A stretch of 64,000 nt of DNA from Minisyncoccota bacterium (GCA_041665625.1 JBAYIK010000004.1:26503-90502); one strand, 5' to 3'; positions 32,971-51,161 are shown, counted from the first letter of the stretch. A program made the numbers and translations. The notes: generated by a model from the letters alone, not told the origin.

Positions 32971-33037
32971 CCCCCACACCAACTTTTGCATTATTGGGTT
33001 TTGCGCTTTTATCGCGATGTAAAAGTTGGTGTGGGGG
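32971..33037. promoter_or_regulatory. Long hairpin of 21 bp with one G-U or mismatch and a 25-nt loop. It lies at the junction of the high-GC block and rpsO and is probably a terminator or insulator.
   Basis: CCCCCACACCAACTTTTGCAT pairs with ATGTAAAAGTTGGTGTGGGGG. Confidence 0.5.
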
Positions 33038-36110: not shown

Positions 36111-36140
36111 ACGTCAATAAAAAAGACCCGTGTCGTGGGT
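36111..36140 (-). terminator. Intrinsic terminator that closes the hammerhead-punctuated operon.
   Basis: The minus strand reads GACCC-ACGACAC-GGGUC followed by UUUUUUAUU. Confidence 0.45.
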
Positions 36141-36194
36141 CTTACGGCTCATTTATTATCCAGTCGAGCTTCTGGTTTCTGCCACAGCAGAGGG

Positions 36195-36605
36195 TTAGCG
36201 GAGGTCAAGGAGAAGCCACGCTTCAGCGATCATGTCTGGCTGGAATTCTTCGTGAATCCAGACAGCTTCCTCGCTGATGTGGCCGCCACCCATTCCTCCC
36301 GGGATGTGGTTTAGGTCTGTCGCCGGGTCGCAGTCGAATTCAGCGATCTGCTGGGTTATTGCACTCGGCGAGTAGATGTAGATGCTACTTCCCTCCCCCT
36401 CGTTGCAATCCCAGGCCACGTCATCGAGCTTGCGTGAGAGAGTGAGAATGCGGGCTCTCGGTCCGATCAGCGAGAGAGGAACGGTCAAGTAAATCTGACC
36501 ACCCCAATCACCTTCGAAGATGAGCCACCAATCAGTGAAGACGCTCTCTCGCGCCTGCTGGCAGAAACTGGTCAGCACAGCTTGCTCATGTGCGAGCGTC
36601 TTCAT
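36195..36605 (-). CDS. Hypothetical protein: cargo ORF d of the hammerhead array.
   Basis: 136 aa. AAAGGG ribosome-binding-site-like sequence about 30 nt downstream of HHR1. Confidence 0.45.
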   Translation of the reverse strand: MKTLAHEQAVLTSFCQQARESVFTDWWLIFEGDWGGQIYLTVPLSLIGPRARILTLSRKLDDVAWDCNEGEGSSIYIYSPSAITQQIAEFDCDPATDLNHIPGGMGGGHISEEAVWIHEEFQPDMIAEAWLLLDLR

Positions 36606-36637
36606 AGCGAACCCTTTCGGTTAGTTAAAGATCAATC

Positions 36638-36690
36638 CGTTTTCGCTCTTTTGAGCTCATCAGTCGAGACACACATCTCGAGAACGGGGC
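36638..36690 (-). ncRNA. Hammerhead ribozyme, type III (HHR1).
   Basis: The minus strand reads CCCCGUUC^UCGAGA-UGUGUG-UCUCGA CUGAUGAG CUC-AAAA-GAG C GAAA ACGG. The full catalytic core (CUGAUGA...GAAA) is present. Stems I and II are capped by loops, and stem III is open. Confidence 0.7.
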
Positions 36691-36742
36691 CCAATTTGAT
36701 ATCTGGTTGGGCTTCCAGGTTATAACGCTTCGGGTTTCTCAT

Positions 36743-37171
36743 TCACTCCTTCCACCGGAAGGTGGGCCTATCACTAGGCAGTTCGTATTCGGGGTGCAAT
36801 TCCTGAAATTCTTGGAATTGATAGATATAACACCCCGGAGCCATCCCGGGAATGTCATCGGGTCCAAAAGACCCTTTCTGTTTCGCCCCGGTTGTGGAGA
36901 ACTGGAGAACGAGCTTGGCGTGATCTTCTTGGAGTTCGATGTCCAAGAATTTCTCCCAGTTGACGTGGGAACAGTCGCAGGGAACAACGACACAATTATA
37001 CGTGTGCAGCTCCCGGCAATATTCCTCGCCCAAATGGTTTCCCCATTGCTCTCTCCAATTGTCCATTAGCAACAAATGGGAGTGCCCAGCCAAGCAGATC
37101 TCCACCATCTCCACGCCGCCGTTTGAACACGCGCCACTTCTGTCCCACTGCACGACTTGGGCCTTCATGAT
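36743..37171 (-). CDS. Hypothetical Cys/His-rich protein: cargo ORF c.
   Basis: The start was set at MKAQ, which has an AAAGGAG ribosome-binding site 7 nt upstream. An A9 tract lies just 5' of the ribosome-binding site. Confidence 0.45.
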   Translation of the reverse strand: MMKAQVVQWDRSGACSNGGVEMVEICLAGHSHLLLMDNWREQWGNHLGEEYCRELHTYNCVVVPCDCSHVNWEKFLDIELQEDHAKLVLQFSTTGAKQKGSFGPDDIPGMAPGCYIYQFQEFQELHPEYELPSDRPTFRWKE

Positions 37172-37584
37172 GTTTCTCCTTTTTTTTTGCGATATAAAGA
37201 ACAACTCCCCTGTGAAAGTACGACACATGTCGCGCTCTCAATAAGGGAGTCGATTTTTTTAGGATCGACTCAAAAACTTGCGATTGATTGCCCTACCTGA
37301 CGAGCAACCTGGCGTCCCTTGGGTGTCCCGCACTCTCCCGGACCCATGTTCTGGGAAGGAGTCCTTTCGGAGGAAACGTGCAACCATCTCTTTGTTTGTT
37401 ACGGGTTGTTGTGCTGCCGTATCAGAGGAGATTGGCTGTCCAGTCAGAGAGGGTGCTAGCAGCCCTCGTGGACAAGACGGCGGGGTTAAGGAATTAGCCA
37501 TTCACTTTATTATCGACAGCTTTTGTGGCATATCGACGCGGGTGACTTACCGTGACCTCACGTGCTATGGGGATCGCCTACTCC

Positions 37585-37629
37585 CTGCACCGATTTATTT
37601 TCCAAAACTGAAAGACAAATCGGTGCAGG
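37585..37629 (-). promoter_or_regulatory. Conserved 12-bp-stem hairpin accompanying HHR2.
   Basis: CTGCACCGATTT, a 21-nt loop, then AAATCGGTGCAG. Confidence 0.5.
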
Positions 37630-37654
37630 CAATCGCTTTAATTTAAAGAACAAT

Positions 37655-37709
37655 CCGTTTTCGTCATTTCTGACTCATCAGTCGAGACACACATCTCGAG
37701 AACGACGCC
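37655..37709 (-). ncRNA. Hammerhead ribozyme, type III (HHR2).
   Basis: The minus strand reads GGCGUCGUUC^UCGAGA-UGUGUG-UCUCGA CUGAUGAG UCA-GAAA-UGA C GAAA ACGG. Stem II covaries relative to HHR1. Confidence 0.75.
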
Positions 37710-37741
37710 AATTTTATCCAGATTGGCAAACTGGGCCACGG

Positions 37742-38134
37742 TTACCCGGTGCCGAACACTCGAACACTAATGCGCTCGCGTTCGGTCTCTGTTCCGTGGG
37801 CCACCCCAAGCAGGAAGACCTGCGTGAGAAGGCGTTCGAGGGCTGCACCAGCGCTTTCATCGTCAGCACTGGCGGTGCGGGCAACGGCGGCGACCAAGTC
37901 TTCGCCGGGGTTGTAATCCCTTTCCACTTTGCCGAACGCCGGCTCGTGGCACAGGATAACTTCCCCGTCGGTTTCCTTGGCGTACTCTTCACGGCTTACA
38001 CCGATCAAGTACAGGCCAACCTTGCTGTCGACCTGGGACGCAAGAACGTACAACATATCTCCCCCTTTCTTGGTGGTTTGTTGTGTCTGGCTTGCCCGAT
38101 TCATCGGCACGTCATTGTTCGGCAACATCCCCAT
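37742..38134 (-). CDS. Hypothetical protein: cargo ORF b.
   Basis: 130-aa ORF. Its stop lies about 40 nt upstream of the HHR2 cleavage site. Confidence 0.45.
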   Translation of the reverse strand: MGMLPNNDVPMNRASQTQQTTKKGGDMLYVLASQVDSKVGLYLIGVSREEYAKETDGEVILCHEPAFGKVERDYNPGEDLVAAVARTASADDESAGAALERLLTQVFLLGVAHGTETERERISVRVFGTG

Positions 38135-38640
38135 GACCTATCCCCCCCCTCTTTGTTTGTAAAGATCAAACTCCTCAGGAAACACGAGACTATCTCACAT
38201 TCCCATTAAGAGGGCCGAGTCAGGAGGACTCGGCCGAGATGAGAACCAACCATTATTTTTCTTCTGGGTTGGCCAGACTTTGTCGACAGTGTAGGCTATT
38301 CTCTTTTTACCTACCGTCCCAGGAGAGTCCTTGCCGAAGGGATAATGCATGGCCAACTCGTCGCCCTCTGATTTTTATTTCTCCCGATTATTAAATCAGA
38401 TGGGTTGTGCAGTGAGAGGTATCTCTCGGGCTCGTCAGACCCATTCAGCCCTCCTTGACGGAGAAGGGTTGTCCTTCCTGTTGGGTGCTCCCAACATTTT
38501 GGAAGTTAGAGTTTGGGGACTTACCGACACAGAGCGGATCGTGGCCTTTTGGCGACGATAAAACCGCTGGCGGACTTACTCCCTCCACCGGGTAGACCTC
38601 AGCCTACCCCAGAGTAGGTTGCTCGGGTACCTGCACGCAC

Positions 38641-38686
38641 CTGCAACGATTTATTTTTGATGTTAATCAAACGCAAATCGTTGCAG
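38641..38686 (-). promoter_or_regulatory. Conserved 12-bp-stem hairpin accompanying HHR3.
   Basis: CTGCAACGATTT, a 22-nt loop, then AAATCGTTGCAG. The C-to-A and G-to-T changes relative to the copy at 37585 preserve pairing. Confidence 0.5.
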
Positions 38687-38702
38687 GCGCAAATTCAAGG
38701 AT

Positions 38703-38757
38703 CAAACTGTTTCGTCCTTCCGGACTCATCAGGGAGAGAAGATACCCTCCGACAGTT
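38703..38757 (-). ncRNA. Hammerhead ribozyme, type III (HHR3).
   Basis: The minus strand reads AACUGUC^GGAGGG-UAUCUU-CUCUCC CUGAUGAG UCC-GGAA-GGA C GAAAC AGUU. This is a textbook minimal-plus-loops hammerhead. Confidence 0.8.
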
Positions 38758-38786
38758 ACCGGAAGGGGTTGAACCTTCCGGCTGGA

Positions 38787-38936
38787 CTACCTCGCGCTCC
38801 CTACTGGGTTGACGAGAATCCGTTTTTCGAACACCTGTTGGGATGGGTCAACAGAACCCTTGGGCCGGCCAGCCCAGGTAAATCCGGCCTTGCGCAACAT
38901 TTGGGTTGCGACTTTCTCCGCTTCCTTCTGGCTCAT
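38787..38936 (-). CDS. Small ORF a of 49 aa, the first gene of the hammerhead array.
   Basis: GGAG sequence 8 nt upstream of the ATG. Translation is MSQKEAEKVATQMLRKAGFTWAGRPKGSVDPSQQVFEKRILVNPVGSAR. Below the 60-aa threshold of the ORF track. Confidence 0.3.
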   Translation of the reverse strand: MSQKEAEKVATQMLRKAGFTWAGRPKGSVDPSQQVFEKRILVNPVGSAR

Positions 38937-39070
38937 GGATAATTCTCCTTTGGGCTGTGCCCGGTTTGGAATCCATTCCCTTCTGAGCCGCCAGACTGTA
39001 TTACTTGCTGGCTAGCTCGGAAGGAAACAGATTCACTTACCTTTCCCCTCTTTCAAGGTATCTGCTAGGC

Positions 39071-39098
39071 ATTATACTCAGAATCAGAAGTTTGTCAA
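39071..39098 (-). promoter_or_regulatory. Consensus sigma70-like promoter (TTGACA-16-TATAAT) driving the hammerhead-punctuated operon.
   Basis: The minus strand reads TTGACA (39098-39093), 16 nt, then TATAAT (39076-39071). Confidence 0.5.
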
Positions 39099-39370: not shown

Positions 39371-39399
39371 TTGACAAACTCTTGCGGTCTGCTATACTT
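39371..39399 (+). promoter_or_regulatory. Consensus-like promoter TTGACA-17-TATACT.
   Basis: TTGACA at 39371-39376 and TATACT at 39394-39399. Confidence 0.5.
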
Positions 39400-39406
39400 A
39401 CACCGT

Positions 39407-39770
39407 ATGTTCTTTTGACTTTATCGTTCCCAACCAGAAGGAGGGTTTGCCATGACTGACTAGGTCGGCGCTTGAGCGTCGCCAGCTAGCCCTATCATGG
39501 CGGCTAGCTGGCGATGTTCTAGGCCCAAAGCTAGTCAAAACCTGAATTCCTGGGGCGTAACGTAAAGTGAGTCTGGAGAGTGTTTTTGCCCAAACCAAAG
39601 GAGGATCCTGAAATGGGCGACTAGGGCCGGACAGAGACCATGATTGGTCGAGATTGATCGAGGGTAACCTGGGGATACATTCCCCACGCTGCCAATTGGT
39701 AGCAGAAGAGCAAGCAAAAGGGGCCTAGCGCAGTCGTTACGACGACAAGCGGAGGCCCCAATCTTTTTTC
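39407..39770 (+). ncRNA. Candidate structured non-coding RNA of about 360 nt. Unassigned family.
   Basis: No plus-strand ORF. GC-rich relative to its flanks. A perfect 11-bp hairpin (GCCAGCTAGCC pairing with GGCTAGCTGGC) and several other stems. Ends with GGGGCCU...AGGCCCC followed by UCUUUUUU. Confidence 0.4.
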
Positions 39771-39775
39771 TCAAA

Positions 39776-43585: not shown

Positions 43586-43658
43586 GCCCCGATAGTTCAA
43601 TGGATAGAACGACGGTCTTCGGAACCGTTGATGTGGGTTCGACTCCTGCTCGGGGCAC
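43586..43658 (+). tRNA. tRNA-Arg(UCG).
   Basis: Hand-folded cloverleaf. Acceptor stem GCCCCGA pairing with TCGGGGC. Anticodon loop CTTCGGA. The T-stem has two wobble pairs. Confidence 0.6.
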
Positions 43659-43668
43659 TAATCTTTGA

Positions 43669-43752
43669 GAGCATGTGGCGGAATTGGTATACGCGTACGC
43701 TTCAGAAGCGTATGGAGTGATCCTTGGGAGTTCGAGTCTCCCCATGCTCACC
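43669..43752 (+). tRNA. tRNA-Leu(CAG), with a long variable arm.
   Basis: Acceptor stem GAGCATG pairing with CATGCTC. The D-arm TGGCGGAATTGGTATACGC is Leu-like. Anticodon loop TTCAGAA. Confidence 0.7.
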
Positions 43753-43816
43753 TTCTGTGATTTGAACTTTTTGTATTTTTTTGTTATTATTCAAAAGCTA
43801 GTTAGAGGTGCTGCGA

Positions 43817-43849
43817 GCCACGTTAGAGGCTCTCAAGTCTCTAACGTGG
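43817..43849 (+). promoter_or_regulatory. Conserved 5' leader hairpin abutting tRNA-Gly(GCC).
   Basis: CCACGTTAGAG(GCT), a loop, then (AGT)CTCTAACGTGG. A paralogous copy lies upstream of tRNA-Gly(UCC) at 51059-51092. Confidence 0.5.
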
Positions 43850-43922
43850 CGAGTATGGTTTAGTGGTAGAACACGTCCTTGCCAAGGATGAGACGGGAGT
43901 CCGATTCTCCCTACTCGCACCC
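43849..43922 (+). tRNA. tRNA-Gly(GCC).
   Basis: Acceptor stem GCGAGTA pairing with TACTCGC. Anticodon loop TTGCCAA. T-loop TCCGATT. Confidence 0.75.
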
Positions 43923-43923
43923 A

Positions 43924-44077
43924 CGCCAATATTCTCATCGTCGCGAATGAATTCGCGACAGCTTTGCTGTAATGAGAATATTGGCGTGGGTGCTCGCACC
44001 CCTACCTATCCCCATCTCGACGAATATATTCATGACCTCTTTGCTGTAATGAGAATATTGGCGTGGGCGCTCGCACT
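43924..44077. repeat. Repeat cluster immediately 3' of tRNA-Gly. It contains a 13-bp perfect inverted repeat and a 38-bp direct repeat with one mismatch. The direct repeat contains a copy of the tRNA-Gly 3' end (CTCGCACCC).
   Basis: CCAATATTCTCAT pairs with ATGAGAATATTGG. The sequence CTTTGCTGTAATGAGAATATTGGCGTGGG(T/C)GCTCGCAC occurs at 43961 and at 44040. Confidence 0.6.
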
Positions 44078-44303
44078 TACGTATAGAACTTTCTTAAGAT
44101 TTTGCCTAAAACCCTACAAACTGTGGATAAGTCCGGGGTATAAGTGGATAAAAGACATCCCATAGACTAAGAGATATTCTTATAGAAAACAGGGCAAAAA
44201 GCAAGAATATCCTTATTTTACAACATATTTTAGCCAAAAGTCGTCTTTAAAAGTAGTTTTTTATAGAACTGACCAATAGTGTTTCTTAAGAAACAGGTTC
44301 CAC

Positions 44304-44732
44304 ATGGCACAGGTACCTAAAAATAAGACCCAAAAGCAGATTACGGGGCAAATAGGGGAGGATGAAGCGGCAAAATACCTTAAAAACAAGGGTTTTTCTG
44401 TCCTTGACCGTAATTATCGCAAACCTTGGGGCGAATTGGACATTGTTGCCAAGAAAGGGGAGTGGCTCTATTTTATGGAAGTCAAAACTGTGACCCGGGC
44501 GACCTCCGAGGCTAGCCCCCAAATTCCCCGAGGACTAGCCTCGGGAGACTCTTATGAGCCCGAAGACAATATCCACCCGTGGAAAATCAAGCGCTTATCT
44601 CGCGCTATCAATACTTATCTCTTAGAGAAAAAGATTGATGATGAGACCGACTGGCAAGTCGATTCTATTGCTGTTTACCTCAATAATAGGGGAGAGCTCC
44701 TCAAAATTGAACATTTGGAGGATATTTTCTGA
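44304..44732 (+). CDS. yraN: YraN/UPF0102-family predicted endonuclease.
   Basis: Motif GEDEAAKYL...LDRNYRKPWGELDIVAKKGEWLYFMEVKT. Confidence 0.7.
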   Translation: MAQVPKNKTQKQITGQIGEDEAAKYLKNKGFSVLDRNYRKPWGELDIVAKKGEWLYFMEVKTVTRATSEASPQIPRGLASGDSYEPEDNIHPWKIKRLSRAINTYLLEKKIDDETDWQVDSIAVYLNNRGELLKIEHLEDIF

Positions 44733-44867
44733 CTTTGGAGAAGTCAGCCCTGCTAAGCCTTGGCGAAGCGGGGGATTATATGCTAAGATATGACGGTAAC
44801 CTTAATCGCCTACGCGAAAACTCAGCGGGCTTTGCCACGCCGTAGATTCGCTCCGGCGAATCGAAGG

Positions 44868-44939
44868 CGGGGTGTAGTGCAACGGCTAGCACGAGTCCTT
44901 TGGGAGGATTTAATCCGAGTTCGAATCTCGGCACCCCGA
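44868..44939 (+). tRNA. tRNA-Pro(UGG).
   Basis: A C1-G72 acceptor pair, typical of bacterial tRNA-Pro. Anticodon loop TTTGGGA. T-arm CCGAG-TTCGAAT-CTCGG. Confidence 0.7.
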
Positions 44940-48135: not shown

Positions 48136-48207
48136 TCGGAGTGCAGGGATTTGAACCCTGAGTCCCACGAACCCGAATCGTGGATGTTACCGTTACACTA
48201 CACTCCG
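48136..48207 (-). tRNA. tRNA-Pro(CGG).
   Basis: Minus-strand acceptor stem CGGAGTG pairing with CACTCCG (C1-G72). Anticodon loop TTCGGGT. T-loop TTCAAAT. Confidence 0.7.
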
Positions 48208-51058: not shown

Positions 51059-51092
51059 GCCCCGTTAGAGGCTCGGAAGCCTCTAACGGGGC
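51059..51092 (+). promoter_or_regulatory. Conserved 5' leader hairpin abutting tRNA-Gly(UCC).
   Basis: GCCCCGTTAGAGGCT-cgga-AGCCTCTAACGGGGC, a perfect 15-bp stem. It overlaps the tRNA 5' end by 2 nt. Confidence 0.5.
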
Positions 51093-51161
51093 GGGATTAG
51101 TTTAGCGGTAAAATATCAGTTTTCCAAACTGAGGTCGGGAGTTCGACTCTCCCATCCCGCA
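51091..51161 (+). tRNA. tRNA-Gly(UCC).
   Basis: Acceptor stem GCGGGAT pairing with ATCCCGC. Anticodon loop TTTCCAA. T-loop TTCGACT. Confidence 0.75.

Follow-up and report, generated by a model that had tools for sequence, protein, structure and literature searches.

Three tandem type III hammerheads in a predicted operon of small uncharacterised genes on a Patescibacteria chromosome

Perreault et al. (2011) described bacterial hammerhead ribozymes that flank, in multiple copies, individual genes or small groups of them, mostly in prophages, and proposed a role in processing; tandem copies were found to cleave polycistronic transcripts of about 2 kb in vitro (PMC3088659). The clustering of hammerheads around small, non-conserved open reading frames (ORFs) is thus a described pattern (PMC3088659; 2017 review, PMC6155905), and the role of bacterial hammerheads is treated in reviews as an open question (PMC6155905; 2019, PMC6765202). 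The present analysis concerns a locus of this kind in a 64,000-nt stretch of DNA from a Minisyncoccota bacterium (GCA_041665625.1, JBAYIK010000004.1:26503-90502; hereafter the window), in which three hammerheads lie within an operon of small ORFs on the minus strand. The locus has in common with the clusters of Perreault et al. the same-strand hammerheads around single small ORFs, the polycistronic unit and the proposed mRNA processing, and differs from them in its Patescibacteria chromosome, the absence of recognisable phage genes and the presence of only a housekeeping-type Xer recombinase. The novelty that an earlier note on this DNA had seen in the arrangement was overstated, since clustered hammerheads with small non-conserved ORFs had already been described (PMC3088659, PMC6155905). 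The literature library that was searched gave no mention of hammerheads together with Patescibacteria or the candidate phyla radiation (CPR), and what the locus adds to the known pattern is a Patescibacteria chromosomal host, a composite module with CPR-linked parts and modular differences between two related operons.

The three copies lie on the minus strand at 38705-38757 (HHR3), 37654-37706 (HHR2) and 36636-36688 (HHR1), about 1 kb apart and each between two co-directional ORFs, and all of them are complete type III hammerheads. Written 5' to 3' with the predicted cut marked, HHR3 reads CUGUC^GGAGGG-UAUCUU-CUCUCC-CUGAUGA-GUCC-GGAA-GGAC-GAAACAG, HHR2 reads CGUUC^UCGAGA-UGUGUG-UCUCGA-CUGAUGA-GUCA-GAAA-UGAC-GAAAACG and HHR1 reads CGUUC^UCGAGA-UGUGUG-UCUCGA-CUGAUGA-GCUC-AAAA-GAGC-GAAAACG, which places the cuts at 38751 (C17)/38750, 37700/37699 and 36683/36682, respectively. 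The earlier note had reported three such ribozymes at these places, with stem II pairs GUCC/GGAC, GUCA/UGAC and GCUC/GAGC, an identical stem I in HHR1 and HHR2, and cleavage contexts GUUC^U (twice) and GUC^G; each of these details was recovered in the minus-strand read. HHR1 and HHR2 share an identical stretch of 31 nt, and the stem I loop of HHR3 is UAUCUU, as against the UGUGU of the family. All three copies carry CUGAUGAG-N10-CGAAA together with U16.1 and C17, columns that are invariant in 24 relatives. The core pattern CTGATGAG-N8-30-CGAAA occurs three times in the 64 kb against an expectation of 0.07, and none of 100 shuffles reached three.

With permissive filters over the interval 34-41 kb, the Rfam model RF00008 (Hammerhead_3) aligned end to end at 38758-38704, 36689-36635 and 37707-37653, with E-values from 4.4e-8 to 6.8e-4 and scores of 46.8 bits for HHR3, 32.0 bits for HHR2 and 34.7 bits for HHR1. 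The gathering score of this model is 48.5 bits, and since none of the copies reaches it, a scan of the whole window at the gathering threshold gave no hammerhead match. The covariance-model check suggested in the earlier note therefore succeeds in so far as the model aligns at all three sites, and falls short in that no site attains the gathering score. Only one of about 35 clear relatives in 16 loci reached that threshold, so that such copies probably go unannotated and, with the subtype nearly invisible at this cut-off, CPR and phage genomes probably hold more such arrays than have been reported. The sub-threshold values reflect the composition of the Rfam seed; a subtype model built from the core, R1 (see below), gives 63-73 bits (62.9 for HHR3, 70.5 for HHR2 and 72.7 for HHR1). 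With the members of RF00008 known from viroids, satellites and plant genomes the copies have in common the catalytic core, capped stems I and II, the open stem III and cleavage after H17. They differ in a short stem II (4 bp with a 4-nt loop), in a 6-nt stem I loop of the R-UGUGU-R type, and in being encoded in DNA in an mRNA context, not in a circular RNA replicon. Thermodynamic folding recovered stems I and II in all three copies; the canonical stem III is found in the minimum free energy (MFE) fold of HHR1, which is the canonical hammerhead fold, and in the centroid fold of HHR3.

Relatives in other genomes provided strong evidence on the fold. A scan for the core together with the UUGWUCYUU-type tail that follows it (see below), with one genome per species, returned 21 loci, 17 of which hold real hammerheads, every one in Patescibacteria (Vogelbacteria, Paceibacterota, Parcubacteria, Nomurabacteria, Yonathbacteria, Saccharibacteria, Gracilibacteria and unclassified CPR). 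The four matches from outside the CPR lack stem I and were rejected as chance matches. In an alignment of 24 sequences (A2) the canonical structure paired 94.3% of cells as against 35-46% for slid partners, with 100% pairing in stems I and II and 84.7% in stem III. Compensatory change on both sides was observed at 14 of the 16 pairs in these 24 relatives, and the covariation score of 0.779, compared with 0.07-0.14 for slid partners, was reached by none of 500 shuffles. The proposal that the fold is under selection, for which the earlier note had relied on stem II of the three copies, is thus borne out on far stronger evidence.

The model R1 was built from the hammerhead core alone, with the tail left out. 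Applied to the window and the 17 CPR loci, it gave 36 full-length matches and one truncated match, recovering in the window only the three known sites and adding 13 copies in the CPR loci, where same-strand arrays contain up to six copies (L002), four (L018) or three (L010, L012, L016). Among the copies that had not been selected on the tail, an abutting hairpin is present in 12 of 12 full-length cases and a G(A/U)UCUUU-type tail in about 9 of 12. A tail-free pattern, consisting of the stem I loop UGUGU and the core, matched many viral and metagenome sequences; here and below, viral and metagenome figures are those among the matches listed. Complete type III hammerheads account for 121 of 125 viral and 117 of 126 metagenome matches, and R1 located at least 99 copies across 60 viral loci, with as many as five on one strand of a locus. 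A ribozyme exclusive to the CPR is thereby rejected, and the first genome scan gave only CPR hosts because it was anchored on the tail. Hairpin and hammerhead core occur together in CPR, viral and metagenome contigs. Downstream of one hammerhead of a viral contig, at a distance of about 530 nt (L032, 3733-3765), a DUF805b RNA motif was detected (RF02914, 42.7 bits, above threshold).

Because the ribozyme-plus-hairpin core is common to so many viral contigs, the module probably derives from phages or mobile elements and moves with accessory genes. The same abundance bears on an alternative in which the hammerhead modules are passengers, brought in from phages or mobile elements along with accessory cassettes, which may cleave but have no selected role in the host. 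The genes beside the CPR copies, mostly orphan or accessory (such as MazF, a type IV secretion pilin, a helicase, STIV-B116-like and Csx3), would suit such passengers; the strong covariation and the intact cores across divergent CPR classes speak against them, as does the lack of phage or plasmid homology of the operon in our searches. We regard this alternative as unlikely, and return to it with the comparison of related operons.

The unit around the ribozymes has a promoter and a terminator at its ends. A sigma-70-type promoter, TTGACA-16-TATAAT, lies at 39071-39098 on the minus strand and matches the consensus at 12 of 12 positions, and an intrinsic terminator is located at 36113-36143 on the same strand (stem 36143-36123 followed by a T-run). 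Both are kept in the syntenic locus of a Vogelbacteria metagenome-assembled genome (MAG), L001, where the two promoter hexamers are retained and the spacer has diverged. The best explanation is a single minus-strand transcription unit, with its promoter at 39098 and its terminator at 36113, that encodes four small cargo proteins, in agreement with the promoter-to-terminator unit of co-directional ORFs proposed in the earlier note. The distances from the stop codon of the upstream ORF to the ribozyme, given there as 35-60 nt, were corrected to about 29, 35 and 54 nt. The downstream ORFs have good ribosome-binding sites (RBS) and no promoter of their own, and they start 12-40 nt past the tail where no long hairpin intervenes, so that read-through is apparently needed for their expression.

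Judging from the flanking sequences, each ribozyme is part of a larger module that comprises a hairpin at stem III, the ribozyme, the UUGWUCYUU tail and often, ahead of the next gene, a long hairpin of at least 20 bp. Alignment of the flanks and a repeat search placed the end of a hairpin 1-3 nt ahead of stem III in all three copies. At HHR3 this hairpin (GCCGGAAGG-loop-CCUUCCGGU, 38758-38782, minus strand) is found in both the MFE and the centroid folds, and at HHR2 (37707-37734, minus strand, core GCCAAU/AUUGGC) and HHR1 (36689-36712, minus strand, GCCCAA/UUGGGC) it is seen in sequence and fold. A hairpin within 4 nt of stem III was present in 20 of 22 CPR copies (1 of 22 in the control), in 78 of 119 viral copies (control 8 of 119) and in 57 of 114 metagenome copies (control 19 of 114). 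The tails, immediately behind stem III, are UUGAUCCUU after HHR3 (38697-38705), UUGUUCUUU after HHR2 (37645-37653) and UUGAUCUUU after HHR1 (36627-36635, 21 nt upstream of the start codon of ORF-D), all on the minus strand. Tails of this type follow 17 of 20 CPR copies, none of 121 viral copies, which have A-rich sequence at that position, and 15 of 117 metagenome copies.

Long hairpins occur at two of the three ribozyme junctions in the operon, on the minus strand, after HHR3 at 38637-38690 (25-nt arms, 84% complementary, kept in L001) and after HHR2 at 37584-37629 (21-nt arms, 86% complementary). A compensatory change distinguishes the two, CAACG/CGUUG after HHR3 as against CACCG/CGGUG after HHR2. 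When a downstream hairpin of at least 12 bp was accepted, the control rate equalled the observed rate, which made this criterion too lax, and at least 20 bp was used instead; at this length, hairpins were found after 13 of 31 CPR copies (control 4.5%), none of 141 viral copies and 17 of 116 metagenome copies. Compared with the viral copies, those of the CPR therefore add both the tail and the long hairpin, a linkage that rests on pattern scans. As a module associated with phages, the hairpin and type III hammerhead are widespread; it is the tail and the long hairpin that are largely confined to the CPR.

The composition of the tail is relevant to a further alternative, namely that each ribozyme serves as a kind of terminator: hairpin and cleavage would make the 3' end of the upstream gene, the U-rich tail would cause pausing or weak termination, and read-through would be secondary or regulated. 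The cleavage-site hairpin is indeed the most universal accessory feature, with no U-tract of its own, and the U-rich tail directly follows a closed helix both at the hammerheads and at the hairpins X1 and X2 of the leaders (see below). The G and C of the tail are, however, conserved, which would be needless in a U-tract, viral copies carry the hairpin and, where the tail would be, A-rich sequence, and the position of the downstream ORFs, with good RBS and without promoters, apparently requires read-through. Termination as the main function is accordingly considered improbable. Of three other readings of the tail, two were rejected and one was held to be unlikely. As a plain terminator U-tract it is contradicted by the same conserved G and C; as an alternative partner of stem II (GUUCUUU with AAAGGAC), a pairing that can be drawn, by a variable tail position that does not covary with stem II and by tails that occur without stem II; and pairing with the 3' end of 16S rRNA (GGAUCA) is unlikely, as it fits the GAUC variant and not the equally common GUUC variant; the window itself contains no 16S gene.

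From the layout of operon and module we consider it fairly probable that the polycistronic RNA would be self-cleaved into separate mRNAs. Each ribozyme would cut itself during transcription, right after C17. The ends that a hammerhead produces on cleavage are a 5'-OH and a 2',3'-cyclic phosphate, and RNases that depend on the 5' end favour a 5'-monophosphate. The upstream RNA would have at its 3' end a stable hairpin, 5-8 further nt and a 2',3'-cyclic phosphate, and the downstream RNA would carry, from its 5'-OH onwards, the folded ribozyme body, the UUGWUCYUU tail and then either the long hairpin and a leader or directly the RBS. The ribozyme body would be retained on the downstream RNA, as already suggested in the earlier note. 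Stem III has a length of just 4-6 bp, and its presumed coaxial stacking on the neighbouring hairpin would aid folding before cleavage and allow quick release of the upstream product after it. The outcome would be separate mRNAs whose stability and translation are uncoupled; we infer that the RNA is cleaved in vivo, that the new ends are protected and that expression is affected. A synthetic insulator, RiboJ, likewise consists of a hammerhead (that of sTRSV) and a hairpin in the 5' untranslated region (UTR). By analogy, both arrangements would place a type III hammerhead and a hairpin upstream of the RBS, and cleavage would take away the upstream context and give a structured 5'-OH end; the present one would differ in being natural and in its extra tail, much longer hairpin (21-25 bp) and second hairpin protecting the 3' end of the upstream RNA.

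The same RNA ends are substrates of RtcB-type ligases and of hammerhead self-ligation, and successive cuts would free RNAs of about 1 kb (38750-37700 and 37699-36683) of similar length, approximately 1050 and 1018 nt. It could thus be asked whether these RNAs are ligated into circles, either coding or of a retrozyme- or viroid-like kind. The spacing of arrays in other CPR and viral loci is, however, very variable (about 320-2200 nt), homology between the units does not extend past the ribozyme module, and no ligase is evident near the locus. Circular or spliced products of bacterial arrays were sought by Perreault et al. and none were found (PMC3088659), and we hold the formation of circles to be very improbable.

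Several observations weigh against the favoured reading of self-cleavage into separate mRNAs. All three copies score under the curated Rfam threshold, and the short stem III of HHR2 competes with other pairings in thermodynamic folds. As HHR3 lacks the UGUGU loop and stem III of HHR2 has competitors, the copies might cleave slowly or at unequal rates. The related operon of L001 has no HHR2, and the ribozymes are therefore not indispensable to the operon. Ahead of ORF-B and ORF-C stand hairpin-plus-tail elements without a hammerhead, so that tail and leader may matter apart from cleavage. Finally, a JGI contig that is 99.97% identical to the window (L023) carries a change of the core A6 to C in HHR1 (CTGCTGAG), which would abolish ribozyme activity. 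Two of the three differences of this contig, C17 to A and A6 to C, fall within HHR1 (L023 positions about 120-150, corresponding to window 36690-36655), less than 150 nt from the contig end, and for this reason they are possibly an assembly artefact. Position 1 of this contig corresponds to window 36808 and position 1 of another (L024) to window 36664, i.e., these independent assemblies from the same organism end just upstream of or inside HHR1, and contigs with operon genes are often short or end inside the operon. The 31-nt stretch shared by HHR1 and HHR2 probably accounts for this, as ribozyme repeats would fragment assemblies of the operon.

The comparison with L001, which is syntenic with the window from the terminator to beyond the Xer gene, revealed how the operon varies. 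The promoter, an ORF-A homolog, HHR3 with its tail and long hairpin, leader 1, ORF-C, HHR1, ORF-D and the terminator are all kept. L001 has in addition a 73-aa membrane ORF between ORF-A and HHR3, preceded by a 95%-identical copy of X1 plus tail; ORF-B is replaced by a different ORF, a paralog of ORF-C; and HHR2, its long hairpin and leader 2 are missing. The breakpoints do not coincide with ribozymes or long hairpins; they lie close to where ORF-B starts and immediately upstream of X2. The description of the operon as cassette-like in the earlier note is supported to the extent that segments of ORF and ribozyme are swapped, added or missing in the Vogelbacteria relative, and is not supported by the position of the breakpoints. 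In a further locus (L265, 1413-2360) an rve-family transposase of the insertion sequence type is located directly downstream of an 88%-identical ORF-D homolog, at the point just past the terminator where the similarity between the window and L001 ends. The mechanism of variation looks like ordinary recombination in a variable region and not like a dedicated site-specific system. For hammerheads as passengers with no selected host role, these data cut both ways: the presence of HHR2 in the window and its absence from L001, the transposase beside the ORF-D homolog in one strain and the core mutation in the near-identical contig are in their favour, whereas the tail and long hairpin, conserved across CPR classes, argue for selection in CPR hosts, and HHR1 and HHR3, which two species have kept in orthologous places, also speak against passengers.

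Modular content of this kind, together with a recombinase gene that is divergently oriented to the array, small ORFs of no assigned family and long hairpins that each follow an ORF-plus-ribozyme unit, is also reminiscent of integrons. In integron arrays small orphan ORFs, imperfect hairpins and variable content are likewise found with a divergent tyrosine recombinase, and an integron-like cassette array, with the hairpins as recombination sites of the adjacent enzyme, would extend the link that the earlier note drew between an XerC-like recombinase and a cassette-like module. The recombinase scored 229 bits with XerA_Arch (cut-off 220), which marks it as a generic XerC/XerD/XerA type, and only 119 bits against the 265 of the integron-integrase model TIGR02249 and 75 against the 435 of PRK15417. 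It is syntenic in L001, and a TrmB-family gene and a separate non-coding transcript lie between it and the array. The hairpins are not attC-like. By the attC criterion, R''/R' cores RYYYAAC/GTTRRRY should stand at each cassette boundary, and the long hairpins, present at only two of three junctions, share CCUGCA-N-CGAUUU but not the AAC/GTT core (CAACG/CGTTG versus CACCG/CGGTG). With no IntI, no attC cores and the breakpoints in L001 away from the hairpins, the integron reading is largely refuted, and the recombinase gives no support to a cassette system.

The surroundings of the operon are chromosomal, with the gene order radical SAM, UPF0102, CCA-adding enzyme, Xer, TrmB, operon, three unknown genes, rpsO, NYN, an unknown gene, Band_7 and PNPase (pnp). 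A prophage or integrase context was not found, given these chromosomal neighbours and the Xer-type recombinase. The window is identical to the ENA contig k141_905378, and NCBI labels the source organism as a Candidatus Paceibacterota MAG. An assembly chimera was considered and rejected, since L001 bears out the junction towards TrmB and two independent assemblies bear out the one towards rpsO/pnp; the contig is hence not chimeric. The foreign GC-rich block described in the earlier note holds for base composition, with a GC content of 0.50-0.56 at 33-39 kb against about 0.39-0.45 on the flanks. Nothing else marks a recent foreign origin in phages, plasmids, PHROGs or PADLOC; the operon DNA had no match in phage and plasmid catalogues, and PHROGs gave none for seven window proteins and two from L001. 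Six tRNA genes lie a few kb from the operon (43586-44939, 48136-48207 and 51091-51161), four of them within 1.4 kb. Between a 350-aa unknown gene and rpsO, a 21-nt inverted repeat at 32971-33037 (95% complementary, 25 nt between the arms) is probably terminator-like.

The cargo ORFs, all on the minus strand, are as the earlier note had them, without a recognised family: the four proteins and the three downstream unknowns gave no match in Pfam, NCBIfam, PHROGs or PADLOC. ORF-A (38787-38936, 49 aa) has an AAGGAG RBS 8 nt upstream and a diverged homolog at the same place in L001. ORF-B (37742-38134) may start at 38134, 38104 or 38058, and the ORF in its place in L001 is unrelated to it. ORF-C (36743-37168, 141 aa) is the Cys/His-rich protein pointed out in the earlier note, an orphan with an ortholog and a paralog in L001; among 5.8 billion clusters only ORF-C itself was retrieved. 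ORF-D (36195-36605, 136 aa) belongs to an unannotated family of 41 clusters of about 110-185 aa, found also in Paenibacillus and Porifericola, with the near-invariant motifs EGDWGGQIYL, AWDCNEGEG, GGMGGG and LWIHEEF. No Pfam family or structural neighbour was found for this family, and no relatives in JGI metagenome contigs or viral contigs.

Upstream of ORF-B and ORF-C the operon contains leaders that are, by their sequence conservation and pairing, probably structured 5' UTRs. The conserved 3' part of leader 1 (38135-38474, minus strand) holds a hairpin at 38236-38213, the structured element X1 (38212-38171) and a tail UUGAUCUUU at 38169-38161, just upstream of ORF-B. These approximately 340 nt are about 99% identical to L001, as compared with 74-89% for the neighbouring coding regions, and the differences are mostly in hairpin loops or preserve pairing in stems. 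Leader 2 (37196-37583, minus strand) contains a hairpin, X2 at 37249-37205 and a tail UUGUUCUUU at 37204-37196 upstream of ORF-C; X2 and this tail are kept in L001. Fold z-scores are modest (-1.85 for leader 1 and -2.92 for leader 2). Within 38474-38135 a 53-aa ORF was noticed, whose internal ATG is AAG in L001 and whose shared TTG start is kept, and leader 2 shows patches of similarity in 37583-37260. No Rfam family matched the leaders, X1 and X2 included, at E-values up to 10 in the interval 34-41 kb, and with no R1 match at E up to 1 either, the possibility that they are degenerate hammerheads or another ribozyme class was rejected. They share no conserved internal-loop nucleotides and are regarded as stable hairpins.

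Tails without a hammerhead thus come right behind a stable hairpin, with start codons 12-40 nt further downstream and, at ORF-B and ORF-C, the RBS next to the tail; further sites of this kind were found elsewhere in CPR loci (L001 2668, 1807 and 1232; L014 5732, 6528 and 7296; L020 2989; L021 6009; L013 3299). Tails are more frequent on the ribozyme strand than on the other (44 versus 14), about 24 of the 44 being ribozyme-linked by construction. In CPR genomes UUG(A/U)UCUUU behaves as a 5'-UTR motif in its own right. A more far-reaching and doubtful idea is that Patescibacteria domesticated a phage-type hammerhead as a lineage-specific operon punctuation module of protective 3' hairpin, ribozyme, tail and long 5' hairpin that travels with swappable orphan cassettes, the tail being the binding site for a CPR-specific factor. 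If true, the module would handle intercistronic processing and end protection in reduced genomes, and the arrays would mark a hypervariable accessory-gene system. The arrangement as such is already documented and the cargo proteins are uninformative, which limits the surprise. The locus is nevertheless a clean case, in which a unit with its own promoter and terminator holds three ribozymes in chromosomal, non-phage surroundings. A close relative that differs in ribozyme and gene content offers a natural comparison, and the accessory parts may serve to protect ends, to insulate the message downstream and to be recognised by a host factor.

The separate transcript between the operon and the TrmB-like gene (39371-39772, plus strand) is divergent from the hammerhead operon and convergent with that gene. 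It consists of a near-consensus promoter, TTGACA-16-TATACT, about 365 nt of GC-rich sequence without a called gene, and a terminator of a stem-loop and a T-run, and it matched no Rfam family and is no tmRNA. Two strong Shine-Dalgarno sequences precede three-codon mini-ORFs of the form ATG-NNN-GAC-TAG, MTD* at 39453-39464 and MGD* at 39614-39625. L001 retains both mini-ORFs (as MTD* and MQD*), and a hairpin at 39471-39522 shows compensatory changes.

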